A stretch of DNA of 63,459 nucleotides, the filler included, from Dimargaris cristalligena (lineage: Eukaryota): NCBI GenBank assembly GCA_003614675.1. It is 25 parts of 25 records of this genome, joined end to end, with 100 filler letters (N's around TTAATTAATTAA, not from the genome) between each part and the next. Parts side by side here need not be neighbours in the genome. Positions count along the whole stretch, not along the records: positions 40,884 to 43,316 come from ML004213.1; 24 more parts are not named here. One strand, written 5' to 3'. The position numbers and the translations under genes are program-made. The notes under the pieces were generated by a model. The model worked only from the letters and a program-made list of their open reading frames with translations, ran no database searches and had not been told where the DNA came from. Positions 23,094 to 60,323 of the stretch are shown here, piece after piece. Numbering within the stretch: the stretch's first letter is position 1; each line of letters starts with the position of its first letter.

Positions 23094-23461
23094 TGTTATG
23101 ACCAGTAAATTTGAACTATATAAATAACCCACCATATAAGTAAAAAAACCCATATCAACAAATGGGTAAAATTAATATCCAACATTACCAAGATATATAC
23201 CCATCACCCTACTATGTTTTATTTCCCAGTGTTTATTCCTCATATTATCTAGTTACTGATTTGTATCTATTAGTTATTATCATTCTTCCCCTGCCCCTTG
23301 GGTTGGGATATAACCCCAACCATTTTCCCTTAGCTTGCTCTTCAGCTTGCAACTCCTCTTTGTTTTCCTTTTCTGATATCTAGTTTAATAAATCCTAATT
23401 CCATCCTTCAAAGTCCCGCCTGTCTTATGGTACCTGGCCTCATCTTTAGCTTGTCATAACA
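23094..23461 (+). repeat. 5' LTR (368 bp) of a second gypsy family
   Basis: Terminal inverted repeat TGTTATGAC...GTCATAACA; internal TATAA and AATAAA; directly precedes gag. Confidence 0.88.
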
Positions 23462-23496
23462 GTTTGCAAGCTGATTCCTATAGGCCACCTACCAAT

Positions 23497-24462: not shown

Positions 24463-25547
24463 AGAACAGCTGTCTGGTTAGCCGTCAGGATACTCCATCA
24501 CTGGGCAATACTAATGCCATTCCTTTTGGCCACCCCAGTTTCTTTTCAATTCTTGACAAAGGTAGTCCTTCCAATAAATATCCAACACCACAAGAAACTG
24601 AAGAAATTTACAAGTTATCCCCATTGTCCTCACGTCAACAATCCCCCATCCCCTCCCAATAGTCTGCCACCTACCCCACTATAGTCCAAAAGCCCGACCT
24701 TAGCCCTATCCAAGTTCAAAGTTTTAACCCATACCCAGTCCTAGTCCCTAGCCCCGCCTGTTACCCTGCCCTGGTCCCTAGCCCTTACTCTTGTTTGATC
24801 CTACCTTCCCCCCCCCTTACAAACCCCAGTACTTCCCCAGTTATGGATTCTAGTTCTAATTTACCTGACCTAATTTTATCTGCTGTAGGAACAAAACAGC
24901 ATATTGTTTTCTCTGTTTGTATAACCCTGGGTAATACCCCTATTTATGCTGATGCCATGCTGGACTCTGGTGCCAGTGATTCATTTATTGATTCACAATT
25001 TATCTCTACCCATCAAATCCCCCTTGAAGAACTTGCCTCCCCAATTACCCTTACAGTTATTGATGGCTGCTCAATCTCCTCAGGTGCTGTTACTCACCGT
25101 ACTAGCCCCCTCTCCTTAACTATTCTTGATCACCATGAAACCCTCTCCCTATTTGTTACCAATTTGGGTCACTATGATATTGTAATTGGCCTTTCCTGGC
25201 TTCAAAAACACAATCCTAAAGTTAATTGGGAATATGATTCTTTAGTATTTCGGTCCTCATACTGTTTAAACAACTGCCTCAATAATAAGCCTAGTACTAT
25301 AGAATTTGTAGACCAATATAAACTAGCTGATTATATTGATTCTGGCAAAGCTATCTACGCTGGTCACCTTAATACCCTCAATATCTCATCCACAGCCAAA
25401 ATTACTATCCCACCCGAGTACGCCAACTTCAATGACATTTTTAGTAAAGAAAAATCAGAACAACTCCCTGCCCACTGTGCTTATTACCACCATATCCCAC
25501 TTCTCCCTGACACCCAACCTTCCTTTGGCCCAATATACTCCCTGTCC
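24435..25547 (+). pseudogene. pol in -1 frame (protease, start of RT) with in-frame TAG near 24660; cut by contig end
   Basis: AMLDSGASDSFID, YDIVIGLSWLQKHNPKVNW, FSKEKSEQLP, FGPIYSLS. Confidence 0.88.
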
Positions 25548-25647: not shown

Positions 25648-28097
25648 GGACAGGGCGTATATTGGGCCAAAGGAGGGTTGGGTGTCAGGGAGAAGTGGGA
25701 TACGGTGGTCATAAGCACAGTGGGCAGGGAGTTGTTCTGATTTTTCTTTACTAAAAACGTCATTGAAGTTGGCATACTCGGGTGGGATAGTAATTTTGGC
25801 TGTGGATGAGATATTGAGGGTATTAAGGTGACCAGCGTAGATAGCTTTGCCAGAATCAATATAATCAGCTAGTTTATATTGGTCTACAAATTCTATAGTA
25901 CTAGGCTTATTATTGAGGCAGTTGTTTAAACAGTATGAGGACCGAAATACTAAAGAATCATATTCCCAATTAACTTTAGGATTGTGTTTTTGAAGCCAGG
26001 AAAGGCCAATTACAATATCATAGTGACCCAAATTGGTAACAAATAGGGAGAGGGTTTCATGGTGATCAAGAATAGTTAAGGAGAGGGGGCTAGTACGGTG
26101 AGTAACAGCACCTGAGGAGATTGAGCAGCCATCAATAACTGTAAGGGTGATTGGGGAGGTAAGTTCTTCAAGGGGGATTTCGTGGGTAGAGATAAATTAT
26201 GAATCAATAAATGAACCACTGGCACCAGAGTCCAGCATGGTATTAGCATATATAGGGGTATTACCCAGGATTATACAAACAGAGAAAACAATATGTTGTT
26301 TTTTTCCTACAGCAGATAAAATTAGGTCAGGTAAATTAGAACTAGAATCCAAAACTGGGAAAGTACTTGGGTTTACAAGTGGGGGGGAGGGCAGGATAGG
26401 ACAAGAGTCAGGGCTAGGGGTCAGGGTGGGGTAACAGGCGGGGCTAGGGACTAGGGCTGGGTATGGGTTGAAACTTTGAACTTGGATAGGGCTAAGGTCG
26501 GGCCTTTGGACTATAGTGGGGTAGGTGTCAGAGTATTGGGAGAGGATGGGGGATTGGTGATGTGAGGACAATGGGGATAACTTGTAAATTTCTTCAGTTT
26601 CTTGTGGTGTTGGATATTTATTGGAAGGACTACCTTTGTCAAGAATTGAAAAGAAACTGGGGTGGCCAAAAGGAATGGCATTAGTATTACCCAGTGATGG
26701 AGTATCCTGACGGCTACCCAGACAGCTGTCCTCTATTGGCGCTGGGTATTGATGTTTTTTGCTTCATCCTCAGCAGGGATAATTGCAGAGATATTAGCAG
26801 GACATTGGGTAGGGCGAGCAGGACAATTGGCCACAATATGGCCTGAATTTCCACAATACAGGCAGAGGTTTAAATTTCTGCGTCTAAGTTTTTCTTCAGA
26901 GGATAGGGGACCACGGGGGGCTACAGAGAGAGCATCAACCTCCATGGCTTGGGAAGGAGGCGGTCTGGGAGGAGCAAGGGCATGGGGTAGGTAGTTTGGA
27001 CGGACAATTGAATTTCGTTTTTCAAAAAGACAGTCATAAAGACGTTCATCAATCTTGGTAGTCAAACAAATCATATCAGATAGAGAGGATTGACGTGTGG
27101 TTCTTGAGAGTTCATCCTTAACATCATTTTTAAGTCCTTTATAGAATTGGAAGCAAAGTGCATCATCATTCCAGTTGACAAGACTAGTAAGGCGTCGGAA
27201 TTCAGAGGCATAGGCAGATACAGAATGGGTTTGACATAGTTTATCAAGGAGCCATTCTGCACTAGCTACTTGGTCAGGCTCACCAAATACAATTGATAAT
27301 TCATGGACAAAATACCCATAGTTTGAGAGAACTTTGGGGGTTTCAACTATTGATAACTAAGGCTGGATCTAGGAAAAGGCAGAGCCATGAAGGAAGGAGG
27401 CAGCATATGAGGTTTTGGATGTTTCTGAGCTGAATCTGCTTAGTTGAATACAAAAAATGAGATTAACCTGAGCTATAAATGTCAGTAGTTTTGAGTGATT
27501 ACCATCAAAAAATTCAAGGTTGGTAATACTAGGTTCATGGGGGTAAGCTGGGAGGGTGGCCTGGGGGTTGGGTTGGGAGATGGTATGGACCTTTTCCTCA
27601 AGGGCTTGGACAACTGTTGCCATCTTATAGAGTTCTTGGTATTCTCTCTTAGTGAGAGTAATGATTTCTTCAGTGGGGGGAGGGTCAGGAGGGGACATAT
27701 TGGTAGGTGGTCTATAGGAATCAGCTTGCAAACTGTTATGATGGGCTATAAGTAAGACCAGGTACCACAAGATGGACAGGACTTCAAAGGATGGAAAATA
27801 GGTTTATTAGACTAGATATCAAAAAGGGAAAACAAAAGAGGAGTTACAAGCTAAAGAGTAAGCTGTAGGGGAATAGTTAGGGTTATATCCAAACTCAAGG
27901 GGCAGGAGAAGAATGACGACAACTAATAAATACAAATCAATAACTAGGTAATATGGGGAATAAAATAATAGGAATAAAACACAGTAGGATAATGGGTATA
28001 TATTCTGATAATATTAAATATTAATTTTACCCATTTGTTAGTATGGGTTTTTTTACTTATATGGCTGGTTATTCTTGTAGCTCAAATTAACCAGTCA
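25648..28097 (-). mobile_element. Second, more damaged copy of the same gypsy element (LTR 27734-28097, gag 26733-27698 with stops, pol with frameshift)
   Basis: Colinear reverse-complement match to 23099-25547. Confidence 0.92.
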
Positions 28098-30738: not shown

Positions 30739-30823
30739 GCTTCATACCTTATATATAAATGTAATAATCAAATAGTAATAATTCATACCTGTGGCAATTA
30801 AGGGGACACTCCACCTTACCACA
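30739..30823 (+). repeat. LTR-like 3' terminus (...GGGGACACT.CACCTT.CCACA); second copy at 45949-46060
   Basis: Shared sequence at two contig starts, ending CA. Confidence 0.6.
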
Positions 30824-32270
30824 CCGGCCACTGCAACTTCAGGCCATGTCGACAAGGAGGCCGCTGCTTCCTCGCAAATCCCAAAGGCTGTCAATAATTG
30901 GCCAGATGTCCCGGGTAGTACACAATAGCCCTCCTATTCATGATGAATATTCAGAATAGCGTAGGAGACTTCTACCAGCTTCACTGATTTCTTTTGTCTG
31001 GCATTAAGCCTGAAGTTTTAAAGTTCTTCAATAAAGGAGCCATTACTTGGGGTTTCTTTTACACCTGACAATGCTGTAATCAATACATACAAAGATATTA
31101 TGAATATATCAAATGTTTTATTACAGGGTGCCTGGATTATCACTGCTGATGAGCCTGGCTATGGTATTTGGGGATGGTCATTGTCTGTTAAATGAGACAC
31201 CAACCATCAGACCTTTATCTACCACTTGGTAAAATCTTAGTATTGCATCTTAAATAGTGAATACAGGATTAAACACCATTGGTGAACTACCTGTGATACA
31301 ATCTAAACAGAAACCAACTAATGGACCCCAAACTATAATAAATGGCAACTGTAGTGCCGTGAGAATGTTGGCCAACAGCCTTTACCATCTGGCTATCAAC
31401 TTATCTGCCGATTCTTATGCTGATTTAATGATTATCAAAGAATTACAATACTTATGACTGTTTTTTTTATCAAATACTAGTGATTATAACTGATATGATG
31501 AATTTCATGAGAAATATTCCATGCCTTTTGGGAAGTCAACTCCCGTTTTGTTATTTTATGTTCATGATAACATCCATATGCTATGATGATATTATGATGA
31601 TATTCGAACCCATTAATGATATTTTGAACTATTTATAATGACCAATTTGCGACCTCTGTTCAGGGAGCCCTCTTCCTGCAACAGGAAAACAATACTTTGT
31701 TCATAATTCCTATTCTCTTTATGATTACTATAAAAATAAAATAAAATACTAATAATTACTAAATTTCTTCCCTCGAAATACATCAACACTTAACACTCTC
31801 TCTTCAATGCCGCGCCTCCCCATTTGTTCCTCTGGACCTAGCATTCCACCTTCGTCCAGCCCGGGTACACCACCACCTATGCCCCAGTGTTCTGCACTCG
31901 AGCAAGGTATGCCAGTCCGTAATCCGAATCCTAGCAGTGGATTTGATGATCCCAACGCCAACACACAACTATGTATGGATTCTAATACCAGCTGTATTAC
32001 TATAGTGCTAATGGTAAAGGCAATGGGTACTCTGGTATATTAAGTGAAATGCATTCAGAAGGTTGGAAAGCAGCTTACACTATTTACTTTCTAATGATTA
32101 CTATCTTTAATACCTAAAGAATAGGTATAGTTTACATGCTTATAGATTTATCCAAACCTACACTGGCTATACTAGTTTTGGCACTGGCTCTGGATGAGCT
32201 ATCTAATTGGTGTAATTTTACTCCCTCATCCATAACAGTAAGGTGAAAATTAATATTGCTAGGGGTGGAT

Positions 32271-32855
32271 TGTTACCTGGGTTAACCACTCTTAGCCTGT
32301 TAAGAGTCCTGAGGATAGGCTTCTAATAGTAGGTGGGGCTTAGGCTTAGCCAAGCAGGCCACTAGTATTAGGTACAGGGCACAGCACTAACTAATAAAGG
32401 TGAAGTATAATAATATATAAGGGATGTGCAGTAGGTACCCTTACTAGTTAGTATAAGGGGGAGTGAGTATATATAGAGTTTATTAGGAGTAAACTAAGGG
32501 GGAGAATAAGCTAAGGAATCTAACTGATCCCAATGGGGCTTAGTTATATATATATGGGGACAATTCTAGAGGGAGGTCCTAAGGGAAGGATACTACTAAG
32601 ACTGAGGTATAGGTAAATAGGCCAACCAGATGGCTGCTAGTATCTGGAAGACTCTGATAGTAACTAGAAGAGATTATAGACCAGTACTTGAGTAATTAGT
32701 GCAAAGAGGTGGAGTCCTGAAGAGGAAGGGTTATATAATAAGGGATAATCTTATAGTACTGGGGGTGACTATGGGAAGGTTAATATGGTACTATTAAGCC
32801 TAATATGATCAGATATCTAAGCCAGCCTGATTAAGGTGGATTAGATGGTCTAATA
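32271..32855 (-). repeat. Family A solo LTR, TA-enriched; partial opposite-strand copy at about 32950-33093
   Basis: Colinear with 33982-34567 and largely with 59760-60323. Confidence 0.82.
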
Positions 32856-33981
32856 TTATATATTCTGATTATGTATTTTAATAAACTCATTATTATTCCT
32901 TTGATTTCTATCTGTCATATGGTACCCAGCCTTACTACTAACCTATCATAATACTCTTACAGTTACTATCAGAGTCTTCCTGATACTAGTGACTATCTAG
33001 CTGGCCTATTTACCTATCTATTAGCCTTAATAGTATCCCCCCTTAGGACCTCCCTCTGGAGTCATTCCCATATATATATAATAGGGTGCCATTTGTGGTG
33101 AACTTACCACATTTTTTACCTACTTTTATTTTTTATCTATTTTTCGCACTTATCGGAAGTATGCCCCTGACGAGTNNNNNNNNNNNNNNNNNNNNNNNNN
33201 NNNNNNNNNNNNNNNNNNNTTAATTAATTAANNNNNNNNNNNNNNNNNNNNNNNNNNNNNNNNNNNNNNNNNNNNGGTTTTGGATAATTCAATGGATCAG
33301 TAAGGTTTTTCTTTATCATATGCAGATACCCCATCACTCAGTTATTCCAATATTCTTGAATTAATACCACTGCTTTTAATCCAGGTGTAGACCATGTCTC
33401 CATCAATTGGCCACATTGTAAATGATTTTTGGTTTCTACTCAAACTGGCTAAGCTGAGTTCCCATACTGGCCCTTTTCAGTAATGCATAAGCTTCCAAAT
33501 ATATGGAAGTATAGATATGAATAAGGAACAATAGATGATGGATGATGGTAGTTGCAACTAGATATCCATCAACTATTAAAAGCAGAGAGGTATCAGATGG
33601 TATTGGCTGATAAAGGCACAGGTTGTCCATGTAAGCTCCAATAACATATACATATTGGGGAGCTGCTATGCAAAATGGCCAGTTGGATAATGCTGTAGAT
33701 ACTATATTATTTAGAATGGGGCTAATGTTATGTTGGACCATTTAATTTACCATAATCTGGGTGGCTTAGCATTCAACTATATTAGGTCTTATAGTAACAT
33801 AATAGCTTTCCCATAATTACACATAGTACCATGGGATCATCACTTATTATACAACTACTCTACCACCCAGACTCTATTAGTTTATACTAATCACTCAAGT
33901 GCTGATCTATTCGACTCATCTAGTTACTAATATTACTTCTACTACCACAGCCAGCTCTACATTTAGAATTAGTAAGGAGTT

Positions 33982-34567
33982 TATCACCCAAGTTAATCAC
34001 TCTTAGTCCATCAAGAGTCTCAGGGATAGGCTTTTAATGGTAGGTGGGGCTTCGGCTTAGCCAGGCAGGCTACTAGCATCGGGTATAGGGCACAGTACTA
34101 ACTAGTAAGGGCTTAGGTGATCAGGTATGCAAGGGACATGCAGTGGGCTCACTTACTGGTCAGTATAAGGGGGGCAAGTATATATAAAGTTTATTGAGGT
34201 AAACTAGGGGGTTAGAATAAGCTAAAGCACTAACTGGTCCCAATGGGGCCTGGTTATATATACACAGGGGGGGCAACTCCAGAGGGAGGCCCTGGGGGAA
34301 GGGTATTACTAAGACTAAGGTATAGACAAATGGGCCAACTGGATGGTCATTAGGGCCTGGAAGACTCTGATGGTAACTGAAAGAGTCTTTGGATCAACAC
34401 TTGAGTAATTAGTGTAAAGAGGCAGGGTCCAAAAGGGGAAGGGTTATATAATATAGGATGATCCTATAGTACCAGGGGTGACAATGGGAAGGTTAATATG
34501 GTGCTATAAGGCCCAATAGGGATGGACACTAAGGTGTCTTAATTAAGGAGGATTAGATGGTCCAATA
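33982..34567 (-). repeat. Family A solo LTR; partial copy just upstream at about 33730-33950
   Basis: Colinear with other family A copies. Confidence 0.82.
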
Positions 34568-34729
34568 GCCAACCTCAGTCTTTTTTTTTTCAATGTGGCA
34601 GACATTACCCTCTATACCAACTAAGAGAACCTCTCTTTGGTGAAAGGTCCCCAAAGCCCCCAATTGCAACCCCAAACTAGACATTATAAGTCCAGATCCT
34701 AGTAGTAACACATAATGACCATTAAAATC

Positions 34730-34872
34730 ATATGGGAGATATTAAATCACACCATAAAATAAAATATCTCACAGATAAGGAAAAACCATTGGTTGAAAAT
34801 GAACATCCCGCCTGCTTTACCATATGCATATCATTTAATACCCTATAGAGCAGATCCGAGTTTCATCCATAT
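34730..34872 (-). mobile_element. Diverged MITE-like copy
   Basis: ATATGGG...CCATAT ends, GGTTGAAAAT..ACATCCC core. Confidence 0.6.
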
Positions 34873-36118
34873 CAATTTCGGTCTGCTGATTAGTATTTGA
34901 TGGACTTATGATTTTATCTATACTGCACAAGCTAGTCCAACCTAATAGGGCTGAGGTCCTTCTGTATAGCTTAGCTATATTTTGACTTCTTTTGCCATGG
35001 TGTTCTGCCTGTGGCCAGAGCAGGGGCCAACCCCAGTCACCATCTCAGTCTAGCCTCCCAGGATAATGCCTGTATACCTGGTGCTTTAGCCCTGGACATA
35101 CTAACTCTAGACTGGGGTGGGTTTTAACCACTCACAACCTGATCATTGGCTGCTTATTAACCACCACCACTCCATAGAGGCCTAATGGTCCATCATCAGA
35201 AGTATCATCCCCTAAAGTTCTGTGGCTATGTATCTGCTCCCTTATATATGTCAGAAATACTAAGGGAATGTCAATTAAATTGGGAGAATGGTAAAAAAGC
35301 CACCAAAGGACAGCAGGTTCCTCTAAGTGGTTTGTTTTAATAAAAAGTATAATTGGTTGGGGGCATTAAGTGTTTAAAATAAATGGTCACAGGATAACTA
35401 AAGAAACTAATGTAATTGGTGAGAAACAGGAGGTAATAATAAATTTGTCAGGACATATTCTTAACAAAACTTGCTGAAAAACAAATAACCACAATATCTA
35501 GGGGAGTCAAACTGTACTGAGTGTAGATAGAAATATTGGTGTATCCTTTCAGCTATATAAAGAGAGACAGGAATAGATAAATAGAATACCTCCAATTGCC
35601 TTGAATATTGGTAAAGAAAGGATATATGCAGTGCATATGTTTTGTAAAGAACTGAACTCAAATCCTTGAAAACTGAACTTTATTTGAAAAGATAGGTGAT
35701 AAAAAGGGAAAGNNNNNNNNNNNNNNNNNNNNNNNNNNNNNNNNNNNNNNNNNNNNTTAATTAATTAANNNNNNNNNNNNNNNNNNNNNNNNNNNNNNNN
35801 NNNNNNNNNNNNCCCTGGCATCCTATTGACTACCTTGAGTGGCTTAGAAACCCACAATTCTCAATTTGTGCTATTATGTAACTCTCTATAGCTAGTTCCC
35901 AACTGGTTCATAGCTATGGCTGTTTTACCCTATGGCCTTTTTGCTGTAGGACTCTGTTGCATATTACATGGTGGCTGTCTCCGTAGCACTTTGGCTCTGC
36001 CTTTTGTTTTCATAATCTTTCCCCATTATGGCCCCAATTCAGGAAAGTCAAGTACTGCAGAAATGTAGTGCTTGATCCCATCTAATAAACAACATTAATC
36101 CCCTCTAACCCTCTAACT

Positions 36119-36472
36119 ATCTTTCTTCTCTTTCTTTTGATTTATATCTATCACACACTAACCCTCTTCTCCGCACTCGTCACGTGATATAGGTTCGTAT
36201 ATAAGTCTCGTCGTTAGTTGATTTATTATTTTCTCATCTTTCTTCTCTTTCTTTTGATTTATATCTATCACACACTAACCCTCTTCTCCGCACTCGTCAC
36301 GTGATATAGGTTCGTATATAAGTCTCGTCGTTAGTTGATTTATTATTTTCTCATCTTTCTTCTCTTTCTTTTGATTTATATCTATCACACACTAACCCTC
36401 TTCTCCGCACTCGTCACGTGATATAGGTTCGTATATAAGTCTCGTCGTTAGTTGATTTATTATTTTCTCATC
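36119..36472 (+). repeat. Three exact tandem copies of a 117-bp unit
   Basis: CTTTCTTCTC at 36121, 36238, 36355; each unit holds GTCACGTGAT and GTATATAAG. Confidence 0.95.
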
Positions 36473-40337: not shown

Positions 40338-40883
40338 CCCCCCTGCGAGTGGTTGGCTGTCCTTTACCATGTCTTGATATATATATATATATATATATAT
40401 TGGTTTATTTTAATTTTTAATTTTAATTATTTCTGTTCCGTTCCTTTTTTGCTTTTTGCGTATTTTGAATTGCTATGATGGGTGCCCTCAAGTAATGCTA
40501 GTCCAGTGGGCCTGTTTTCATGCCGTTTGCAAATGAGAAATCGTTTATGTTTGTGTGTATGTATATAAAGTGGGGTGAGAGTTCACATGGGTCAGAGTGC
40601 CAATCGCCCGGGGATTGGGTGTGTGAGCTCCTCACTCAGAAGTTGGCATTTTAATGTTGTAAAGATGGGATATGATTGAAGGGCCTGTTGCATGGAGGGG
40701 TGGTATTATTTAGAGTAAGAAAGGGGGTATGGGTGGAAGTAATCAGAACTGTCAAACGGGCATAAAGGGTATATATATTATAANNNNNNNNNNNNNNNNN
40801 NNNNNNNNNNNNNNNNNNNNNNNNNNNTTAATTAATTAANNNNNNNNNNNNNNNNNNNNNNNNNNNNNNNNNNNNNNNNNNNN

Positions 40884-41290
40884 TCGAGATGTCAGTGTGG
40901 ATTCTGGTGCATCTTTCCGTGCTGGTTCGAATGAGCTATTGCTCGTCTCGATTGGACAAGTAGCCGAGCAGCTATGAGCACACACCTGATTTGGCAGGCA
41001 CATGCAGTGAAAAATGAGATTCCTAGGAGGCCATGCTACTCGAGATGTCAGTGTGGATTCTGGTGCATCTTTCCGTGCTGGTTCGAATGAGCTATTGCTC
41101 GTCTCGATTGGACAAGTAGCCGAGCAGCTATGAGCACACACCTGATTTGGCAGGCACATGCAGTGAAAAATGAGATTCCTAGGAGGCCATGCTGCTCGAG
41201 ATGTCAGTGTGGATTCTGGTGCATCTTTCCGTGCTGGTTCGAATGAGCTACTGCTCGTCGCGATCGGACAAGTAGCCGAGCAGCTAGGAG
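40884..41290 (+). repeat. 156-bp tandem array (about 2.6 units visible)
   Basis: TCGAGATGTCAGTGTGG at 40884, 41040, 41196. Confidence 0.95.
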
Positions 41291-41565
41291 CAAATTACTG
41301 TGTACTTTAATGCAGCGCAATGGTCATCACTAGTAGCTTTTATTTCAACCATTACATTTCATTGCTAATACATAGAACTAGATACATATAGCTTCACGAG
41401 CATAGAAGCTACACTTCCAATACATACATTATAGAGATTGTAATGATTACATTTATTACATATGTGTTGTATGATGTTAAAGTAACAACTACCAGGCGAA
41501 ACCTGAATTAGCATGCACTAACCAGTGCACTATGGCTACTATCAATTGACATGTACATGTATCAT
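41196..41565 (+). repeat. Left arm of 370-bp inverted repeat flanking GAR1
   Basis: Reverse complement of 42947-43316 with scattered mismatches. Confidence 0.95.
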
Positions 41566-41863
41566 AATGCCATCTAATACTTCCTGTTGCCTTTATGATC
41601 AATGTGTGTGCTATACAGCGAACAAGTATAGTGGCATGCTTGCTGCTACTTGTTGATGACTCCGCACACATTCCAGTTGGCGCAAATGGTGAAGGATCTT
41701 TTTTTGCTTTTTTTTGCTAGTTGATTGCCCTCGCTTTTTCTCTTACCGTTGGCAGTCCAGCACGATCGGCGCTTTCTTTACTCTTTTGCTCTTCTTCCAC
41801 GACATCGACACCGATCTCACTCTGTAACGACGCCCGTTATTGTTTGATCAACACGCACATAAT

Positions 41864-42812
41864 ATGGCTTTTGGTAATCGTGGCGGATTTCGTGGCGGTC
41901 GTGGAGGCGGTGGCGGGTTCCGCGGCGGTAAGCAGCCCAGTGGGCGGCGGTGCTACACTGATCAGCAGCAAGCTAACCACGCGCACGCTGTATGCCTGTA
42001 TGGACTGTCTAGGCCGTGGCGGTGGTGCAGGCGGCTTTTCGGCTGGCCCGCCCGACACAGTGACGGGTAAGTTGCGCGCGCGCTAGCTAGCATTGAACAT
42101 GAAGCATTGATATGGCTCCTATGCGGCGTATGCTGCCATATCTCCGCCTGTAGAGATGGGCGCGTTCATGCATCCTTGCGAAGGCGAGATGGTGTGCAAG
42201 TCGACCAACGCCAAGATCCCCTACTTCAATGCGCCCATCTACCTCGAGAACAAGACGCAGATCGGCAAGGTCGACGAGATCCTCGGCCCGATGAACGAGG
42301 TCTACTTCACCGTCAAGCTGCAGGATGGCGTCGTGGCCGGCTCGTTCAAGACCGACGACAAAGTGTTCATCGCGCCCGACAAGCTACTGCCCCTGGAGCG
42401 CTTCCTGCCCAAGCCGAAGCTCACGAAAGGTAAGCGATTGTCCTGAACATGGGCACTGGATGGCTTACTCTACTGCGTGTTCTATGTAGTTGAGAAATCG
42501 GCACGCGGTGGCGGTCGTGGCGGCGCTGGTCGTGGCGGCAGCCGTGGCGGTAAGTATGCTAGTGGCGGCCCTATGTGCACTGCCATGATGGGCGTGGTTC
42601 CTTCCCCGCTAATGATCGTGCCATGATGCTGCACACTAGGTCGTGGCGGCGGTGGCTTCCGTGGTGGACGTGGCGGTGGCTTCGGCGGCGGCGGTCGTGG
42701 TGGTGGCCGTGGTGGATTCGGCGGTGGCTTCCGCGGTGGTCGCGGTGGTGGTGCTCCTCGCGGCCGAGGTGGCTTCCGTGGCGGCCGTGGCGGTGGTCGC
42801 GGCGGCTACTAG
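41864..42812 (+). CDS. GAR1: H/ACA snoRNP subunit Gar1; exons 41864-41927, 42013-42066, 42154-42429, 42490-42549, 42640-42812
   Basis: RGG-rich ends; core [53 protein letters not shown]...[13 protein letters not shown]; all introns GTAAG..TAG and frame-consistent. Confidence 0.97.
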
Positions 42813-42946
42813 ATTGATTTATTCGCGTTTGCTTTTACTCTATGTCACACTTGCCGAGGACGACAAGCATCTTTGTTGGTTGCTACACTACGTGCTGCAG
42901 AATAAATCGACTAAAAATAGCCCAGTATGGCAGGCAATGCCAGGTA

Positions 42947-43316
42947 ATGATGCATGTACATGTCAATTGATAGTAGCCATAGTGCACTGGTTAGTACATG
43001 CTAATTCAGGTTTCGCCTGGTAGTTGTTACTTTAACATCATACAACACATATGTAATAAATGTAATCATTACAATCTCTATAATGTATGTATTGGAAGTG
43101 TAGCTTCTATGCTCGTGAAGCTATATGTATCTAGTTCTATGTATTAGCAATGAAATGTAATGGCTGAAATAAAAGCTACTGGTGGTGACCATTGCGCTAC
43201 ATACATGTGCACAGTAATACGCTCATAGCTGCTCGTCTACTTGTCCAATCGAGACGAGCAATAGCTCATTCGAACCAGCACGGAAAGATGCACCAGAATC
43301 CACACTGACATCTCGA
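42947..43316 (-). repeat. Right arm of 370-bp inverted repeat, ending inside the 156-bp unit
   Basis: Reverse complement of 41196-41565. Confidence 0.95.
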
Positions 43317-44549
43317 NNNNNNNNNNNNNNNNNNNNNNNNNNNNNNNNNNNNNNNNNNNNTTAATTAATTAANNNNNNNNNNNNNNNNNNNNNNNNNNNN
43401 NNNNNNNNNNNNNNNNACCCTGTGGTAGTAGTAGTCTAGGATCCTCGGCCCCAGCGTCATCACATCAGCGGCCGTGGATACAACAGTATCATTAACCGGA
43501 ACACGGGTGATATTGCTACCTCCCATAACCACGGTTCGACCATCTTGGTCCACGGTCACTACTGGTCCCGACGGAGACAGTAGCGACTTGGCCTCAGTGG
43601 AATTACACAGACTATTTTTAACAATATTGACCTAGTCGGTCTTTATTTGAGGATAATTTTATTGCGTATTCTTAAAGAGTCCCCAATGTCTACTATAATT
43701 ATATAGTTCCTGTCAAATATTACGTAAGTGTAGAATTTCAAGACTTGCACTGCTCGCTTTGCACCCCTTCGCGCATCCTCTATATGTCCATTTCTGCTGT
43801 AATCCAAACATTAGTGGTTTGGTATAAGTATCATTTATATATATACATTGTTTTTCATTTTGGGAGGTTTTCCTCTCATGTTTGCCTTTGTACCAATTTT
43901 TCGATTTTATGTTGCCCACTACTGTAATCTGGGCTATTTTAGTTCCAGTATGAATTTATATACATAGCAGCTGGTGCGCATTTGTTTATTTTCCTCCCAA
44001 ATTATCATTTTTCATCCTATTATACCTGCGCCTGCAATGGCGATTCTTCGCTGATTACTGTTGTATTTATTATTCTATATCTGATTCAACTCTACTGGTG
44101 GGTATGATTTACGTTGATTACATTTCTTTTGTACTTCGCGCCACTCCCCCCTCTCTCCTCTCCCTCGCCCGTGGCCTCGGCAATGTACTATTACTAGTAT
44201 GGTGATTTTTTTAAAAAACTTTGGTTGGATTTGTTACTATACCCTCCTTTTCTTGGTTTTAGGAATATAATGATTTTACTTGATTTTGCATTCGCTGGCT
44301 CAATTTTTGAAGAAGTACGATAACGCAATGCCTCAGTGGAAACATTCAATTAAAGGGTGCCTTTAATTTGGAGATGTTGTTTTTGTAATAGGAAATGAGC
44401 AGGGTATTGGTGGTTTCTGTATATGTGGCGAATTAGCCTTGTCTCACGGACTATACACAGCCGGGTGAGTACATTGCCTATTATTATTAAGTTTGGGATA
44501 CCAGTATATTGATTGACAGTAGCCAGAGAATTTGATGTGGTTAAATCCA

Positions 44550-47700: not shown

Positions 47701-48536
47701 TGCGGTTGAGAATCTCATCCAATAATAAATAATAGTGGCGGGCGGCTCGGATCCTGAAATCGATTTAATTGGTCCTAGTTACCCTCTTTCTTGGCTACTC
47801 TATATCCAGAGTCCATATGTGGATCCATCCGCCTACCCTAAACGCCTCTTCACTGGCAAGTCCATTTATAGTTCGGTAATGTGTACCATCAACCACATTT
47901 TACCTAGGATGTTTTCCAGTACCTGTGCTTTACCAACTGTTCATTAGTTAGTCGTGAGGGCTGGTGTTTAAGAACCATTCGGACTTTACCCAATAGTATC
48001 TTCTTTTTTATTGGTAATTTTTTAGCTTATCTTTAATTGTACCAACGTATTTAACTATAGCTATACAAAAAACATACTCAATAAACCATTTAGGCCTAAT
48101 TGTTTGTCATGTTGCATAGTGCACAATTGGGGGAATATTACGTTTTATCGGTTTTATTAGTCCTGAAATTATTTGATATTATCGATTGGATTGCGATATG
48201 GGCAGTATCATAGGTCCCAACGAAGAACGCAATCGTCGCCGTTGAAACCGTCGGTGAACAGTTAGCCGCCGAAAAGAGATCCAGTTCGATAGCAGGAGCC
48301 ATCAATGGTGAAGGTCGCTTCGTTGATGAACGTGTGGACACCTCCATAATTATTCTCTCGGGTTCCGGCAGTACAAANNNNNNNNNNNNNNNNNNNNNNN
48401 NNNNNNNNNNNNNNNNNNNNNTTAATTAATTAANNNNNNNNNNNNNNNNNNNNNNNNNNNNNNNNNNNNNNNNNNNNAAGGGTCGGACCATTTGGCGTCA
48501 GCGGCTGCCTCTTGCACAATCATGGTATTGCTAATA

Positions 48537-48759
48537 TATTGAAGAATATATTACTATGTGTTCTTTATTCTATCCTATTTTTATCCAAATACGTTAGTTT
48601 ATTCTGTTACCATGAGATCATTCATATTAACCACTTATATTTCACCACACAGAAACTACAGTTCAATAAAACTAACCACCTAGAGGTACCTATCATCATC
48701 TAGCTGCTTTCTTCCCTTACTTCCAGTTTTATTTCCTTTATAACCTTAGTATTCCAACA
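48537..48759 (+). mobile_element. Family D solo LTR with 5-bp TSD TAATA
   Basis: TATTGAAG (eroded TGTTG)...TTCCAACA; TAATA at 48532-36 and 48760-64. Confidence 0.85.
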
Positions 48760-48889
48760 TAATATGCCTATAATAGACTGTAGTATTATTTTTGGGAGAA
48801 ATAGCCATATATAGCTGCTAAATATGAGCTTATTGGATCTGGTGGTCATGCTTGGATGTACATAAGATCTGTTCAATAAAGGTATCAGA

Positions 48890-49464
48890 CCTTCTAATCT
48901 GACTTAATTTGGACATAATGATTATCAGTCCCTATTAGTCCTTATAGTACCATATTAACTTTGCTATAGTCACACCTGGTATTATAGAATCATTCTATAT
49001 CATATAACTATTCCCTTTCCAGACTCCTTAGTTTGCACTAATTACTCCAGTGCTGATCCAAAGACTTATTATGTTACCATCAGAGTCTTCCAAGTCCTCT
49101 CAGCTGTCCAGTTAGCCTATTTATCTTACCCTAATCTTAGTAGTATTCTTCTCTGGGGGCCTCCCTCTAGTGCTACCCCTGTGTATATATAACTGGGCCC
49201 CATTGGGACTGGTTAAATTCCTTATCTTATTATTACCCCCTTAGTTTACCCCAATAAACTCTATATATACTCACCCCCTTGTACTAACTAGTAAGTGTGC
49301 TTACTGCATGTCCCTTACCTATACCTTCATTAATAACCTTTATTAGTTAGTACTATACCCCTGCCTAATATTAGTAACCCACTTAGCCAAGCCTGAGCCC
49401 TATCTACTATTAGAAGTCTATCATCAGGACACTTAATAGACTAAGAGTGATTAACATAGGTAAT
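48890..49464 (+). repeat. Family A LTR, strongly eroded
   Basis: Colinear with 5210-5466; end GGGCGACA has become AGGTAATA. Confidence 0.8.
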
Positions 49465-50997
49465 AAATAGAATTACAAAGAAATGCTGTAAAGGAAATAA
49501 GATAGTATGTGCAGAGCATTTAAATTCTCTTTGAAGAGGGCTCTCTGAACTAGAGAAGTGAAATCGGTTATTTAAATATCAAATGTTATGCTATTTATAT
49601 TGAATAGTCATCATAAATTCTCTATATTGAATAAAAACCAATTGCAAACGTCAAAATAATGAAATAATAATTGAATTGTCATCAAAATCGGTGGGTAAAC
49701 TGATAACCAAATGGTGAAAACCTGATTAGTGTGGTGCTCACGACACTACATATACATGCTTTAGATATGATGGAAGGTTTGTGCTCCACCATTCTGCAGT
49801 TCTAGTAGAATGAAGCATCAAGAAATTTCAAGTCTTCATTCTGCTCAAGTTGTATATCAAGGGCAACACCACCACTGTAAAATTGGGCATATTAATGTAA
49901 TATAGAAAAGAGCCAAAAGTTTTATTGTATCATATTACCATCACAAAGTAGTAAATGAATTTAAAAAAATGATGCATTGATAAAAGTCAGTTAAACAGGT
50001 TTGTAAATTAACACAAACAATAATAATTTGCAAGAAAGATAGAAGGGCTGGTATGTTGTAAGAGGGGATAGTAACATGCTATTCAGGAGCCCATTAATGA
50101 AACACAGCCATGATAAGTTTTCCTAATAATATATTGGCCATATTTAACGTCAAAGACACAGTACAATGGCTGTGGTTTCCCTCTATTTCCTAATTTCTGC
50201 CGCACTACAAGGAGCATTTTGTAATTAGTCCAGGGTTGACTTCCAGTATAAATAGACTAGCGTCACTCAGGATCAGTTGTACCTCACCCAAAATCCCAAA
50301 ATACAGAAAACTCAATAAAGTAGCCAGCCAAAATATATAGCTAGCTACAAAACTGATACTTCAGGATAATTTAGTCCTGATTTGTCGGGTTTGGGCCTGG
50401 TGGCCTGGGAGTGATAGGTGCCTTAGGTTGGCGAGTGTCATAATCCTGATAGATTATTGTATCAGGTTTTAAAATGCCATCCTGAGAGGGATGACTTACA
50501 GTGATTTTGTTCTGCATTGTAGCAAAGTCCTGGTTGTCAGTTTGGTTATAACCAAGGGTGGAGGAGCTGATAGTCCCTTGGCTGTCTTGGGAGCTTTTGG
50601 GGGGATAGTTTGTGGATGGCATTTCAGTGGTTGTTTAAATGATGGTAGTTGTAGATGATGTTTAATCAATGACAAGCGTGGATTATGTTTGAAATTTTTA
50701 TTGTAAGACTAGTTGAAGGCATGCTTGCATCTTTATATTCAAAACCCTGGCCTCGATAATTTTCATTTGACTGATGTCACTATCTATCTGTACCATACCA
50801 ACAATGGGCTGTTCTATAATAGTAATGAACTGTGAGAATATTACCCCCTCCCCTCCTTGTGACCGATCATTTCCAAAAACACAATATTGACTGAAGCNNN
50901 NNNNNNNNNNNNNNNNNNNNNNNNNNNNNNNNNNNNNNNNNTTAATTAATTAANNNNNNNNNNNNNNNNNNNNNNNNNNNNNNNNNNNNNNNNNNNN

Positions 50998-51610: not shown

Positions 51611-52696
51611 ATGCCACCTGCACGTCCTAAAGCTACATCTATAAAGGAACTTACTAAGAAATTGGAAGTATTGGAGAGAGGTGCAGCTGAACGTCAAGTA
51701 CTCCATGCTGAGCTTATCACCTGTAAAAAGGCTCTGGAGGAGGCTTTAGCTACTATTGCTGTCCTCCAAGCTGAATATACAGCCAGACTAGCCCTATCCA
51801 CTACCCCCTCTACCCAGCCTGCCACTACCAAGCCTGCCCACCAGTCTGTTCCCGAGCCTGCTCCCCAGGCCATGCCCACTCCTGCCCCCAAGCCTGCCCC
51901 TCAGCCCACCCTCCAGACCGCTCCCAAGCCCGCCCCTCAGACCGCCCCTCAGACCGCTCCCAAGCCCGCCCCTCAGACTGCTCCCAAGTCCACCCCCCAG
52001 ACCACTCCCAAGCCCATTCCCCAGACTGCCCCCATACTCATTCCCAATACCCCCACCGAGGGCTCATATGCCTGGACTGCCAAACGAGGGCACTAGGCTA
52101 ACCCTAGTAACCTTGTTCCCTCTCCCCCAGCCCAGTCCCAGTGCCGTTATGAGGCTACTGCTAGGATCTTCACCCCCAATTTAGGCCCTCAGGGATTTGA
52201 GTATGTAGTGATCCCTAGGAACTGCTGATTGACCTGAGCTGAGGTTCAAAAGAGCCTATGGACCCTTGGTATTGATATCTCCAGACTACTAGATATAGCC
52301 TTCCCTTCTGTTGGTCATGTGGCCCTACTGGTCTACTGCCAATATGCTCCCAAGCTCACAGAGCTATTTTCTACTGCTAAGGTCCCTATCTGTGCTGGGT
52401 TTGATCTCCTTCACCCTTCCCACCTAGCTGACCCTGCCTTAACTGCCTTGCCCCCCTCTGATTGTGCTCAGAAGGTGGCTGAAATTCAGTGTGCCCACTG
52501 TCTATGGGCTGTCCACTATCTGGCTTTCTAGAGACCCACTGTTGCCAGAGCTATTGCTCATTACTTTGTCCAGGAAGGCTGGATTGCAGAGGAGGATATC
52601 CCTGCCTCTACTAACTCTACCTGCCCAACCTGGGTAAGTACCCTCCCTTCCCCCCTTTCCCCTCCTAGCCCCCAAGATACTGAGATGGTCTTATAA
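51611..52696 (+). pseudogene. LINE-type ORF1 pseudogene with (T/P)APK/Q-P repeats and several in-frame stops
   Basis: Single frame reads GPQGFEYVVIPRNC*LT*AEVQKSLWTLGIDISRLLDIAFP..ALLVY..HLADP..AIAHYFVQEGWI, matching the Mucorales-type LINE ORF1 pattern as I recall it. Confidence 0.72.
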
Positions 52697-55007
52697 GTCC
52701 ATTTCACTTCCCTGACCACTACCTTATGCATTCCTTCCCTGCCATTTAGGCTAGCTACTTAGTTTTAGTACTACTTTTTTTCTGCCTTGGTAGAGACCTT
52801 TTCCTGTGGCCCCCCACCTTACTGATAATACCAATAACCCCTGTCCAGCTAAGTTGGGTAGGTTGTCATAAGGACCTGGTTTCTTCCCAGGGTCTGTTTA
52901 TTATTCTACCTTCTGTCTTTTCCCTCTACATCTGTAGCTTTTGAGGGTTTTTGACCAAATTACCCATTATCATGTTCCCTGTAGATAGCAATTATGACCA
53001 AAAGGTTGCCTGCCTTAGATTCACTTTAAATAAAACTCTACTTCATCTGAGCTAATAAGGCTTCTCCTTGTTGTGACGGGTTCTGAACACCCTTAAGCTT
53101 TGGTGATGTCACCAACGATGTACCTTATGATCATTAATCAAATTATCACCTTTTTACTATAGTTAGTTTAGTTTATCAGTATTAATACTGTAGCACCGAG
53201 ACCCGGTGGACCGGTTAGGTCGGGGATTACATCATGGGGGGAAAAAGCCGGGAAAATTGGCAGGAGGTTTGAACTACTATCAGGGATCTCGTTATTGGTA
53301 GATTGTAGTGGAGCCAACAGTGGGGTGTAGAAGTACTTTGCGGTGAGAAAGACATTGCGGTTTTTTACAAATTTATTTACTAAATAGAAATAGAGCAATA
53401 TGAAAATAATAGACTNNNNNNNNNNNNNNNNNNNNNNNNNNNNNNNNNNNNNNNNNNNNTTAATTAATTAANNNNNNNNNNNNNNNNNNNNNNNNNNNNN
53501 NNNNNNNNNNNNNNNGAAATCTCAGTAAGGAGATGGAAGCACAATCAGCCTGTATTTGTTTTCCCCCTCCCTCCTCCCCTTCAGCTACACCCAATTGTCT
53601 TGTTACATCCTTACCAATGACTAACCACAGTCCTAATGATACCAATGCAATACCACCCTTATCTGACAATGACATGCCTCAAAACCAGAATGACCAGGGT
53701 GTTAGACAAATAGAAGCCCTGGTCATTGATGAAGAATGCCTCCAGTCCACCATATCAATAACCCAACTTCTGAGGCACTCATCACCTGAAGCAGATAGGA
53801 TAGGATGCTATCACGGCCCCCTCTTGTCCACTGGCTCTCTCCCAAAAACTCTACTATTGATGGGAGTGACCCCATATCTAGTGAGTACTGGCAGTCATAC
53901 TTCATAAGAATTAGGACTAGCTATATAATAGGTGTTATGGCTGCTCCGTAGATGCTCTTCAGTTTACTAGAATTCCTACCACTAATATATTTCTTTATTA
54001 CATCTCCTTTGCTATATTTCCCTAATAAAATGTGTATCTTACTTACTTAATTCAACAGTCTCATCACTTGAATTTGTAACCTATTTCTTTTTTGCTATGC
54101 CACACTGTCCAATTCATTGGGCCACATGAGGGCCTACAATAATCTCATTGGGGGTTCCCTTAAGTTGAAAGGAAAAGGTGGGAGAGTTACTAAGTAAGTT
54201 CTACCTCCATCCCAGGGTGATTTGTTTACATATATTCCAATGAAATACCAGGGTGGTTTCTACCTCCTGCCTCAGTATTGCATTAGGCAAACCCATTTTA
54301 CATTGAAACTGGAACTACACTAATCCCTCAGACTTGACATACCCCATTGAAGTAACTCACCTAACTCTTGCATATACTAATTGTGTCCCATCTATACATC
54401 TTTATAGCCCCTTACTCCACCACTTATAGAAAAAGTAAAAAATCCAGGAAGTTGAAAAAAGCTGACCATAGTAGTAGTTGTAGTAGTGGTAAATTGATTG
54501 CTAAGTAATATGACAAGAGCCAAGACAACAATTCCAGTCAGATACTCACTCCCACTGAAGTATTAGTAGCCAAAACTAAGGCCAAGATTGAATCTGGGAA
54601 GGCACAGGAAAGATGGGTAAATTTGTGGATTGATTATTTGTCAGTTTGGTGGCAACTGGGGACTAGTTAGTTAGCTGGGCTCTCTCATTCTGTAGCTCTA
54701 AGAGTGTTTTTACATTTCAATATATGCTCATTCTATTTGATTTGAAAATAGCTAAGGTTATACCCCCCTTCCCTGCTCTTTCTCTCCTTGGTATATATTA
54801 CTATCTAAAACTAGTTTGATGGAAACTGTGGATACTGACATATATGGCCTTCTTTATTTGTCACCCTAGTTAACTACCCTTAGTCCATCAAGAGTCCTGA
54901 AGATAGGCTTCTAAAAGTAGGTGGGGCTTTAGACTCAGCTAAGTAGGCTACTAGCATTAGATACAGGTGTAATGACATGACCCAGAGATCTGGGAGGGGT
55001 TAAAGAT

Positions 55008-55230
55008 TGTTGAAATACTAAGGTCATAAAGGAAATAAAACTGGAAGTAAGGGAAGAAAGAAGCAAGAGGACAATAGGTACCTCTAGGTGGTTAGTTTTA
55101 TTGAACTGTAATTTCTGTGGGGTGAAATATAAGTGGCTACCATGAATGATCTCATGATAGCAGAATAAACTAATGTAATTGGGTAAAAATAGGATAGAAT
55201 AAAGAATATGTAGGAATATATTCTTCAACA
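55008..55230 (-). mobile_element. Family D solo LTR, TSD AAGAT/GAGAT
   Basis: TGTTGAA...TTCAACA termini; reverse match to 48537-48759. Confidence 0.82.
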
Positions 55231-55376
55231 GAGATAGCCTACCAGGTTGAGATAACTATGGTCAAGAAACAGAAGTTAGCCTAAATGCCTATTAGTTTAG
55301 GGATGTAGACTGGGAGGGCAAAGGTAATACTACTGTCTCTTGTGGAGAGATTGATTGGGGATGGCTTGAGCAAAAC

Positions 55377-55520
55377 ATATGGAAAAAGTTTAACCAGGCT
55401 GTATAATGATAAATCTATTAAATGAGGTAAAAGTCTCTATTTAAAAATGAATCTCCCACATATTTCCCCATACATCCATTATTCAAAACTTTATACAGCT
55501 GCACTGAATTCCACCTATAT
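55377..55520 (-). mobile_element. 144-bp MITE-like element
   Basis: Reverse match to 29945-30088. Confidence 0.75.
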
Positions 55521-55576
55521 TATAAACTGAAGATAGAGTGACTAGAGTATCAATATTGAAAGATATTAAATGGGTT

Positions 55577-55931
55577 TGTTACCCAGGTTAACCACTCTTA
55601 GTCTATTAAGAGCCCCAAGGATAGGCTTCTAATAGTAGGTGGGGCTTAGGCTTGGCTAAGCAGGCTGCTAGCATTAAGTACAGGCACCATACTAACTAAT
55701 AAAGGCTATAAGTACAGGTATAGGTAAGGGATATGCAGTAGGCACACTTACTAGTTAGTAAAAAGGGAGTAAGTGTATATAAAGTTTATTGGGGGTAAAC
55801 TAGGGGTTAGGATAAGCTAAGGAATCTAACTGGTCCCAATGGGGCCTAGTTATATATGTATAGGGACAACTCCAGAGGGAGGTCCCGGGGGAAGGATATT
55901 ACTAAGACTAGGGTAAGATAAATAAGCCAAC
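55577..55931 (-). repeat. Family A LTR, cut by contig end
   Basis: TGTTACCCAGG start, colinear with other copies. Confidence 0.82.
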
Positions 55932-58445: not shown

Positions 58446-59502
58446 NNNNNNNNNNNNNNNNNNNNNNNNNNNNNNNNNNNNNNNNNNNNTTAATTAATTA
58501 ANNNNNNNNNNNNNNNNNNNNNNNNNNNNNNNNNNNNNNNNNNNNTGGGACCTTCTCTCCATTTCTCTATTATCTATCTATCTTTCTATTTAGGCTTCCC
58601 CTTTTAAGTATAAATACTCCCCCTTGCTGCCACCTCTTGGAGCAGCAAGTCTATCATCACCCTTCCCCTTTTTATCATCTTTCTTTTTAATAAAGTTCAG
58701 TTTTCAAGGATTGAGTTTGGTTCTTTATACTCAACAACCTGTACTATTAAACTTACAATTACTATACTTGTTTACTGGCTTTTATCTATATTCCTTACAC
58801 ACCTCAAATAAACCTTTATCTCAACAACAACATTAGTGTTGAATGATGTGGGGTTTCTTATTACCTCCTATATTGTTATAATATAGGCTATCCAGTGCAG
58901 CAGCATCAACAGTATCCCACCTACAGGGGTAACACCACCAATACCCAAAATATTTCCCACTATAGGTTTACCCTACTGGCATGTATCAATTATGTCCCAC
59001 TTGCCTTTATTTATTGCCAACTTCATATTTAACTTATTTAGCCATTTAGTATAACTATTATACTTAACAACCTAAGCAAGCTTTCCAAGTACACAAAGAT
59101 AACTGGTGGCATTCCCACCTCTCTTTGAAAGGAGTCAACTGCTGCCTTCTCACATTCTACTGCTTAGTCTTCTGTTCCCCATTTGACTACCCTCTTCTGC
59201 AGCTTTGGATTTGCCCTCTAGGGTTGTGGATTATGGCAGGTTTGCAGAGTTGGAGGAGACCAAGGTGTGGGCAGATGTGGCCATGGAGGCAGATGGGAGT
59301 ATGTAGATAACAAGGCAACAGCAATTATTATATTATAATTATTTTATACAGGATAAATAATCCCAGAGGCAATAATAACTAGAAAAAGGAAATAGTTGGG
59401 GGAAAAACAGGGAATGGAGGGTGCAAATTTTTTGATGGAAGCCAGTTGGATAATCACTTGTAATGGCCACCTCCTTAGAGCAAGCAGCTGATAGAAGAGA
59501 AG

Positions 59503-59646
59503 ATATAGGTGAAGTTCAACTTGGCTGTATGAGGGTTTAACTGATATGTATATGGGAAAATTGGTGGTATGTTTATTGTCAACCAGTAGTATATGTCTTA
59601 TCAAAAGGATTTTTCATTATAAAGCCTGGTTGAACTACTCCCATAT
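59503..59646 (+). mobile_element. 144-bp MITE-like element
   Basis: ATATAGG...CCCATAT ends. Confidence 0.75.
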
Positions 59647-59759
59647 TGTTACTTCCACTGCAGCAACTGAACACAGCTGCACAATTATGAATGAGGTATC
59701 TCCTTTAACTGAGACTAGTGTGGCCGAGTATGCAGATAACCAGGGTCCCACCTATGCAC

Positions 59760-60323
59760 TATCACCCCTCCTAATCCGTCCTAATCCAACCACTATAATT
59801 ACTGTCATAGCAGGCCATATAGTACCATATTGTACCCCCAGCCCTAATAAGGCCAGACATTACTGATATCTCCTTACCAGCTGGACCTCCCGGAGTTTGC
59901 ACTAATCACTCCTAGGTGATCTTAGTGCCTTCCAATTCCCATGGAAGCCCTGCTAATCCAAGGACCAGCCAGTCCATCTTATTATTATCCTATTATTTAG
60001 TTCCCCCTGGGACCTCCCCTTTGGAGTAGTCCCTTGCGTATATATAACTGGACCCCCTTTGGGACCGGTTAGTAGCTTAGCTTATTTTCTTACCCCTCAG
60101 TTTACCCCAATAAACTCTATATACACTTACCCCTTTGTTACTAACCAGTAAGTGTGCATCAGTGCACGTCCCTTGCCTACATAGTACACTTGCTTTATTT
60201 AGTTTGTACCAGCCACAATACCTAATGCTAGTAGCCCACTTGGCCGTATCCAATGCCCCGCCTACTGTTAGAAGCCTATCCCTGAGACTCTTGATGGACC
60301 AAGAGTGGTTAACTTGGGGGACA
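59760..60323 (+). mobile_element. Complete family A solo LTR (564 bp) with 5-bp TSD TGCAC
   Basis: TATCACCC (eroded TGTCGCCC)...GGGGACA; TGCAC at 59755-59 and 60324-28; TATATA then AATAAA inside. Confidence 0.9.

Follow-up and report, generated by a model that had tools for sequence, protein, structure and literature searches.

The GAR1 locus and its inverted repeat

The analysed stretch of DNA (the window, 63,459 nucleotides) consists of 25 contigs of 2,403–2,483 nt each, which are arranged by descending size, range from 36 to 61% in GC content and are joined by linkers of the form N44-TTAATTAATTAA-N44 (e.g., at 40784–40883 and 43317–43416). The locus studied here (40884–43316) is one entire contig of 2,433 nt from a fragmented assembly, in which a gene encoding GAR1 is located between two inverted arms that pass outward into a 156-bp tandem repeat. 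Because the locus is a complete contig, the “both contig ends” of an earlier, sequence-only reading of this DNA are to be taken literally.

GAR1 is a subunit of the H/ACA small nucleolar ribonucleoprotein, a complex that performs pseudouridylation. According to the splice model and its translation, the gene extends from 41864 to 42812 on the + strand and codes for 208 amino acids in five exons (41864–41927, 42013–42066, 42154–42429, 42490–42549, and 42640–42812), which are separated by four introns of 85, 87, 60, and 90 nt, all of the GT…AG type. It is preceded by a short 5′ region with T-runs (41684–41863, + strand) and followed by a 3′ region (42813–42946, + strand) with an AATAAA motif at 42901–42906. 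The core between the arms had been described as holding an intact GAR1 and nothing else, with about 300 nt upstream and about 135 nt downstream including AATAAA. This was borne out, as 298 nt lie before the ATG at 41864 and 134 nt after the stop codon ending at 42812, and GAR1 is the only gene in the core.

Exon 3 matches the Pfam family Gar1 (PF04410) with an E-value of 8.2e-31 and 106 bits (cut-off 29.3) over profile positions 4–92 of 92, and the spliced product carries RGG-rich N- and C-terminal parts. The product shows identity in 124 of 124 residues to P0121, a partial public model labelled Syncephalis pseudoplumigaleata, and in 179 of 199 aligned residues to a full-length protein of 206 amino acids from Syncephalis fuscata. 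The best matches of exon 3 come from Zoopagales (S. fuscata 95%, Thamnocephalis 93%), and the host is a Zoopagales fungus. The GAR1 genes of S. fuscata and Thamnocephalis are carried on contigs of 345,596 and 45,735 nt, respectively. In the protein collection, the cluster of P0121 is recorded on two contigs, the longest of which has 2,443 nt. Among the best 120 hits in each of two lists, only one protein stands under the species label. GAR1 is intact and orthologue-like, with a full-length product that is colinear with the orthologues, and it is apparently the sole copy in the genome. No RNA run is listed among the eight public runs that match the contig.

The core is enclosed by a left arm (41196–41565, + strand) and a right arm (42947–43316, − strand) of 370 nt each. 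The arms reported from the sequence-only reading are thus present; they are complementary at 353 of 370 positions (BLAST E-value 3e-170) and separated by a spacer of 1,381 nt. Of the 17 mismatches, 15 are found in columns 56–153, counted from the outer end, and one each at columns 321 and 365. The inverted repeat ends abruptly at column 370 on both sides, and no inverted similarity was detected in the next 134 nt of each side, where the best local score was 14 compared with a mean of 15.0 (standard deviation 2.3) for shuffled sequences. A 7-nt direct repeat, AATGCCA, occurs just inside the left arm (41566–41572) and 4 nt inside the right arm (42936–42942); it does not directly abut the right arm and was spotted only post hoc.

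On the left side, a tandem repeat with a unit of 156 bp, 2.6 copies, and 98% matches was identified by TRF (40884–41292). It includes two full satellite units (40884–41195, + strand), which differ from each other at 1 of 156 positions. Each unit consists of a part A of 96 nt and a part B of 60 nt. Part A also forms the outermost 96 nt of each arm (41196–41291 and 43221–43316), and in the arms part B is replaced by an AT-rich unique part of 274 nt with 33% GC (41292–41565 in the left arm). Going outward from GAR1, the order is therefore unique arm part, part A, and tandem units. Such a unique segment, combined with tandem units that share 96 nt with the arm, agrees with the foldback-like architecture proposed earlier. 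It had also been noted that the right arm resembles the left units more closely than the left arm does, and within part A the right arm indeed shows one difference to unit 1 and the left arm four.

Neither the arm nor the 156-bp unit was found in any of the other 24 contigs of the window, and none of these 24 has terminal inverted repeats. A search of the whole contig against Rfam with E-values up to 1 gave no match, and an exact look-up of the open reading frames (ORFs) of the contig in the protein collection found none of seven. Of six ORFs from the satellite, arm, and junction regions, five were without a Pfam hit. The sixth reached 16.6 bits for Yeast-kill-tox, which is below the cut-off of 23 bits, and was taken as a chance match.

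Both contig ends fall on the first base of the 156-bp unit (TCGAGATGTCAG), the same position at either end, as had been observed before. They would share this phase because both arms enter one graph node, and they are probably assembly breaks, not the ends of a molecule. The contig would be short owing to the inability of a short-read graph assembler to cross the satellite. No TTAGGG-type telomere motif was found in the 2,433-nt contig.

Every boundary between satellite units is a CTCGAG sequence (XhoI; 41039 and 41195), and another CTCGAG is located at 42243. The contig starts with TCGAG (40884–40888) and finishes with CTCGA (43312–43316), i.e., with XhoI half-sites, which is unique among the 25 contigs. 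An origin of these ends from restriction fragments was rejected, as the CTCGAG at 42243 inside GAR1 is uncut and none of the other 24 contigs ends in this way; the half-sites probably coincide with the graph node by chance.

Junctions, depth, and arm variants in public sequencing runs

Eight public sequencing runs from three studies contain the contig or a part of it. Four of these, X1, X2, X3, and X5, the last one from the same sample as X1, were aligned to the contig in the form of Logan contigs (k = 31). The left junction (41565/41566) is bridged without mismatch by record 7 of X1 (41530–42982), record 15 of X2 (41530–41683), and record 22 of X3 (41530–41596). The right junction (42946/42947) is likewise bridged without mismatch by record 7 of X1, record 16 of X2 (41654–42982), and record 23 of X3 (41584–42982). 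At 42946/42947 neither a fork nor a loose end was found in X1, X2, and X3, the arm being the only continuation of the 3′ flank of GAR1. The bridging contigs extend 36 nt into the arm, which is the limit of a k = 31 graph past the mismatch at column 365, and this mismatch, located 6 nt from the junction, is therefore present in X1, X2, and X3.

The inverted repeat around GAR1 is thus real and not a fold-back produced by amplification or assembly, since both junctions are bridged in three studies and the right one has no alternative continuation. The sequence-only reading had regarded the repeat as genuine unless the junctions between arms and core turned out not to be spanned; they are spanned in X1, X2, and X3.

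The depth of the arms exceeds that of the GAR1 core in all three runs, with 396.5 vs. 129.5 in X1 (3.06x), 101.6 vs. 23.3 in X2 (4.4x), and 416.5 vs. 160.5 in X3 (2.6x). In X2, the left junction together with the adjoining 118 nt (to 41683) has a depth of 77.7 compared with 23.3 for GAR1, and a fork is present at 41683/41684, where a second path leaves with an unlike continuation of 24 nt. The 118 nt next to the left arm (41566–41683, + strand) are thus repeat-like in this run by depth and fork, and they have no inverted counterpart on the right side. The left-junction contig of X3 also has a higher depth (254.6 vs. 160.5), and in X2 the satellite contigs exceed the GAR1 core in depth by a factor of 10–19. 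Loose ends at 40983 (X1 and X2) as well as at 40994 and 43312 (X3) join the satellite or the outer end of the arm to other sequences. The higher depth of the arms (2.6–4.4x that of GAR1) and the other continuations of the left junction in X2 and X3 assign the arms to a low-copy repeat family with about 3–4 arms per GAR1. Two exact-match scans of metagenome contigs with arm stretches both gave no match.

The two arm variants are distributed differently over the runs. In X1 and X2, the left variant is the only arm contig (41230–41559, 330 nt, no differences), and the bins specific for the right variant (43016–43261) have a depth of 0. In X3, the right variant is the only arm contig (42953–43266, 314 nt, no differences), and the bins specific for the left variant (41294–41457) have a depth of 0. 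Both variants are present in X5. X3 lacks one T at 41708, in the T-run upstream of GAR1, which is its sole difference from the window in the core over 1,398 nt. Near-identical to the window in the core, this run yet carries the other arm variant with 16 differences.

The depth flow at k = 31 was compared for one variant on both sides and for the window layout, i.e., the left variant at the left side and the right variant at the right. In X3, the observed arm depth of 416.5 compares with 254.6 + 160.5 = 415.1 expected for one variant on both sides and about 295 for the window layout. In X2, 101.6 was observed, with 101.0 expected for one variant on both sides and 89.4 for the window layout. This fits a single variant serving both sides in X2 and X3, with arms that differ at column 365 only. 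The 5% divergence between the arms of the window contig is then probably that of a mosaic, in which the assembly path combines two variants from pooled data. With one variant per run and this depth flow, the arm divergence is unusable as an argument against a fold-back, and the use made of it in the sequence-only reading falls away.

The near-identity of the arms within a genome is deduced from contig depths and not read directly. Together with the 16 differences between the variants, it would imply that the arms are homogenised by gene conversion, and recombination between the arms could invert the GAR1 segment. Two genotypes or haplotypes with homogenised arms would fit as the reason for the run-specific variants. 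The available part of the report on a genome project that covers the labelled species gives heterozygosity in three of four Zoopagomycota (PMC6784888). According to the same part, amplified libraries, each from 1 to 100 cells, were pooled in this project and co-assembled by SPAdes with k = 21, 33, and 55 (PMC6784888); a derivation of the window from this project is not asserted.

Origin of the repeat-flanked gene

The explanation we favour, with somewhat better than even confidence, is that an ordinary chromosomal and probably sole GAR1 is stranded between two inverted copies of a low-copy foldback-like repeat or satellite border. The gene would be located on about 1.3 kb of unique sequence, an island between two inverted repeat modules, each of which would consist, in outward direction, of a unique segment of at least 274 nt, the 96 nt shared with the 156-bp unit, and a unit array. 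Most likely, GAR1 would be flanked on each side by the outward-facing end of a foldback-type or satellite-bearing element, or would separate two inverted copies of a single satellite border, and would represent host DNA, not cargo. For any two elements with inverted termini, the ends that face each other are in inverted orientation, which explains the arms without GAR1 being carried by an element. The sequence-only reading had named a dispersed repeat on each side of the sole chromosomal GAR1 locus as the finding that would speak against its own proposals; the depth of the arms and the other continuations of the left junction come close to this.

The comparison with described foldback elements leads in the same direction. 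Long inverted repeats with tandem sub-repeats are characteristic of such elements, and here 370-nt arms run into the 156-bp unit on both sides. In Tetris of Drosophila virilis, according to the available part of its description, the order from the outside inward is a unique flanking domain, tandem repeats, and the inner and middle domains; 37 bp are common to flanking domain and repeat unit, and the repeats expand into satellite arrays (PMC4079207). As far as this part of the source shows, long inverted arms in which tandem repeats of about 150–220 bp come after a unique flanking domain are common to Tetris, FB, Galileo, and the present locus. The stretch common to unit and flanking domain also has its equivalent, with 37 bp in Tetris vs. 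96 nt here, and in both cases the repeats build satellite-like arrays and the copies are without ORFs. The legend of figure 1 in the same partly available report mentions a partial Tetris copy beside a short gene, RpL15 (PMC4079207).

There are also differences. The target site duplications (TSDs) given for Tetris in that part have 8–10 bp, whereas the present contig ends inside the arrays, without a terminus or a complete copy. Unlike Tetris, FB, and Galileo, the repeat occurs in a fungal host and as a low-copy family. No sequence similarity to described elements was found in searches limited to Rfam and Pfam. In contrast to the foldback order as far as it is described, with the unique domain outermost and the tandem repeats towards the middle, a single element with GAR1 inside would have its tandem units outermost. 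The unique part lies beside GAR1 and the tandem units are distal, and a Tetris-like mapping therefore puts GAR1 outside; in this analysis, the foldback domain order is obtained only if GAR1 lies outside, between two element ends.

Several points weigh against this explanation. The “element” is inferred from its architecture, the contig having no outer end, TSD, or transposase. The alternative continuations are seen solely as loose ends of 24–30 nt, and the strings at 41683, 43312, and 40983 were found in the other 24 contigs in none of three cases, with up to three mismatches allowed. The arm of X1 reaches 3.06x the core, yet there is no third entry path among the records shown. In the depth-flow test, each contig is represented by a single mean depth. 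The absence of a variant from a run is no proof, since minority variants are lost from Logan contigs. Finally, X1 and X3 share the organism label and the year and may come from one campaign, only X2 being different in both, and the run that matches best may also be the source of the window.

Among the alternatives, a local inverted duplication ranks first, although we regard it as unlikely. It would have formed a small palindrome in which a satellite border was copied across GAR1 without transposition and the arms were kept alike by conversion. The arms are near-identical within a run and differ at 16 positions between runs, and the repeat stops sharply at column 370 on both sides, both of which speak for such a structure. 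For large sex-chromosome palindromes, arm-to-arm conversion and rare inversions are documented in the available part of the report (PMC3723533). As far as described there, these palindromes resemble the present locus in their inverted arms around a unique spacer, which may itself be inverted (PMC3723533), and in arms that appear near-identical within and different between genomes, as gene conversion predicts. On the same partial account they differ from it in size and in gene position, since the arms here have 370 nt or more, not kilobases to megabases, and the gene is in the spacer, not in the arms. Against a single palindrome, the arms have 2.6–4.4x the depth of the core and not 2x, and the left junction has other continuations, which requires more copies than one palindrome supplies.

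Next in order, and likewise improbable, GAR1 may be the cargo of a non-autonomous foldback-type or composite element, with the arms and the 156-bp arrays as terminal inverted repeats and the whole unit being mobile. The inverted repeat is real, long, and enters tandem units on both sides, the interior is packed, the gene leaving only 298 nt on its upstream and 134 nt on its downstream side, and the repeat family has more than two copies, all of which would suit such an element. However, X1, X2, and X3 each show the core and the right junction in a single context, and the other contexts comprise the arm plus the left 31–118 nt. Such an element would have its tandem units on the outside and its unique domain on the inside, whereas the opposite order is given for Tetris in the available part of the report (PMC4079207). 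No ends, TSDs, or second copy of the unit were seen, and GAR1, equipped with introns, a promoter, and a 3′ signal, is the only one under the species label among the matches listed.

A gene carried as cargo would also call for comparison with Pack-MULE and other gene-capturing DNA transposons, in which host sequence likewise lies between inverted repeats. Pack-MULE-type elements usually contain gene fragments and have short, defined terminal repeats and TSDs of 9–10 bp. In contrast, the present locus holds a whole gene with promoter, four introns, and poly(A) signal, seemingly the only copy, and GAR1 is placed outside with respect to the element-like orientation of the repeats. With the arms at 2.6–4.4x the core, a forking left junction, and a reversed domain order, the cargo proposal of the sequence-only reading is hard to sustain.

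Rather unlikely as well is a reading in which an essential single-copy gene occupies the spacer of a small palindrome within arrays of a nucleosome-sized (156-bp) satellite of an early-diverging fungus, with gene-converted arms, and in which the segment can be flipped or the foldback-type elements on either side can mobilise it as a composite unit. If true, this would be a eukaryotic analogue of a housekeeping-gene composite transposon, or a gene island in a satellite-based, possibly centromeric region.

It is very unlikely that the contig is an artefact, either an inverted chimera from whole-genome amplification or the product of an assembler walking a single arm twice through a hairpin-shaped graph. 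In chimeras from multiple displacement amplification (MDA), the join arises independently in each reaction, and the new strand copies the template. Here, unlike in such chimeras, the same join is found in three studies, a fixed mismatch lies 6 nt away, and the 3′ flank has a sole continuation; neither a junction private to one reaction nor an exact copy of the template was observed. Both junctions recur base for base in three studies, X1, X2, and X3 show no other path leading out of the 3′ flank of GAR1, and in all three runs column 365 distinguishes the right arm from the left, so that the right arm is not a faithful copy. A chimera is excluded on these grounds. In favour of an artefact, the depth is very uneven in some runs (about 15,600 to 450,500 across the 2.4-kb contig in X5), and the arm variants of the window contig are probably mis-phased. 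The inverted join within about 1.4 kb and the amplified-looking data resemble MDA products as described in the available parts of two reports (PMC1855051, PMC5372508), in the first of which more than 85% of the amplification chimeras are inverted joins (PMC1855051). Pooled, amplified libraries of 1 to 100 cells assembled with SPAdes, as partly described for the project on the labelled species, would point in the same direction (PMC6784888), subject to the reservation made above on the origin of the window.

An extrachromosomal molecule or amplicon of the size of a gene, linear or with hairpin ends and capped by repeat arrays, as the sequence-only reading had also considered, has next to nothing to recommend it. 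The contig is symmetric with both ends at the same unit phase, and the protein collection lists this GAR1 on no contig longer than 2,443 nt. However, no TTAGGG-type match was found, the loose ends at 40983, 40994, and 43312 tie satellite and arm to other sequences, the arms are deeper than the core, ends of the same phase are expected from a graph assembler, and the CTCGAG at 42243 inside GAR1 shows that the TCGAG ends are not restriction-fragment ends.

Taken as a whole, the sequence-only reading was right about a real, foldback-like inverted repeat, whereas its divergence argument, the cargo, and the linear molecule are not supported. The odd contig reflects a genuine genome structure and not an amplification chimera, but the phasing of its two arms is not to be trusted. 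With the gene stranded between two inverted repeat copies, as we favour, the locus would represent, as it stands, an ordinary outcome of repeats flanking a gene. The repeat is an undescribed low-copy family with a 156-bp satellite and a foldback-like architecture in a Zoopagales mycoparasite; in the literature searched on Syncephalis transposable elements, fungal foldback elements, and Zoopagomycota satellite DNA, no such repeat was found described for this group. Where an essential gene is enclosed by repeats of this type, inversion, gene conversion, and position effects are worth looking for.

Other features of the window

Many contigs of the window share ends of 53–90 nt with other contigs at 93–100% identity, e.g., 7575–7630 with 2606–2661. 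Such shared ends are a mark of graph-assembly breaks at repeats, and those of 53–59 nt fit a k-mer size of about 55.

Contigs 10 and 11 (23094–25547 and 25648–28097) are 92.7% identical end to end in opposite orientation. Both encode a Ty3/gypsy-type gag (PF19259, PF03732) and an aspartyl protease (PF08284). An interpretation as two haplotypes was rejected, since with gag and protease they are probably two copies of a retroelement and not alleles.

A dispersed repeat of about 250–580 nt with 75–85% identity is common to seven contigs of the window (2584–5058, 5159–7630, 30739–33175, 33276–35712, 48478–50897, 53516–55931, and 58546–60956). In the copies examined, no ORF of 70 amino acids or more was found.

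Two further tandem repeats were identified. The first one (36119–36472), in a contig with a GC content of 55%, is perfect and comprises three copies of a 117-bp unit (100% matches). The second one (51810–52034) consists of nested CCA/CCC-rich repeats of 12, 24, and 36 nt and is probably a coding repeat rich in proline and threonine.

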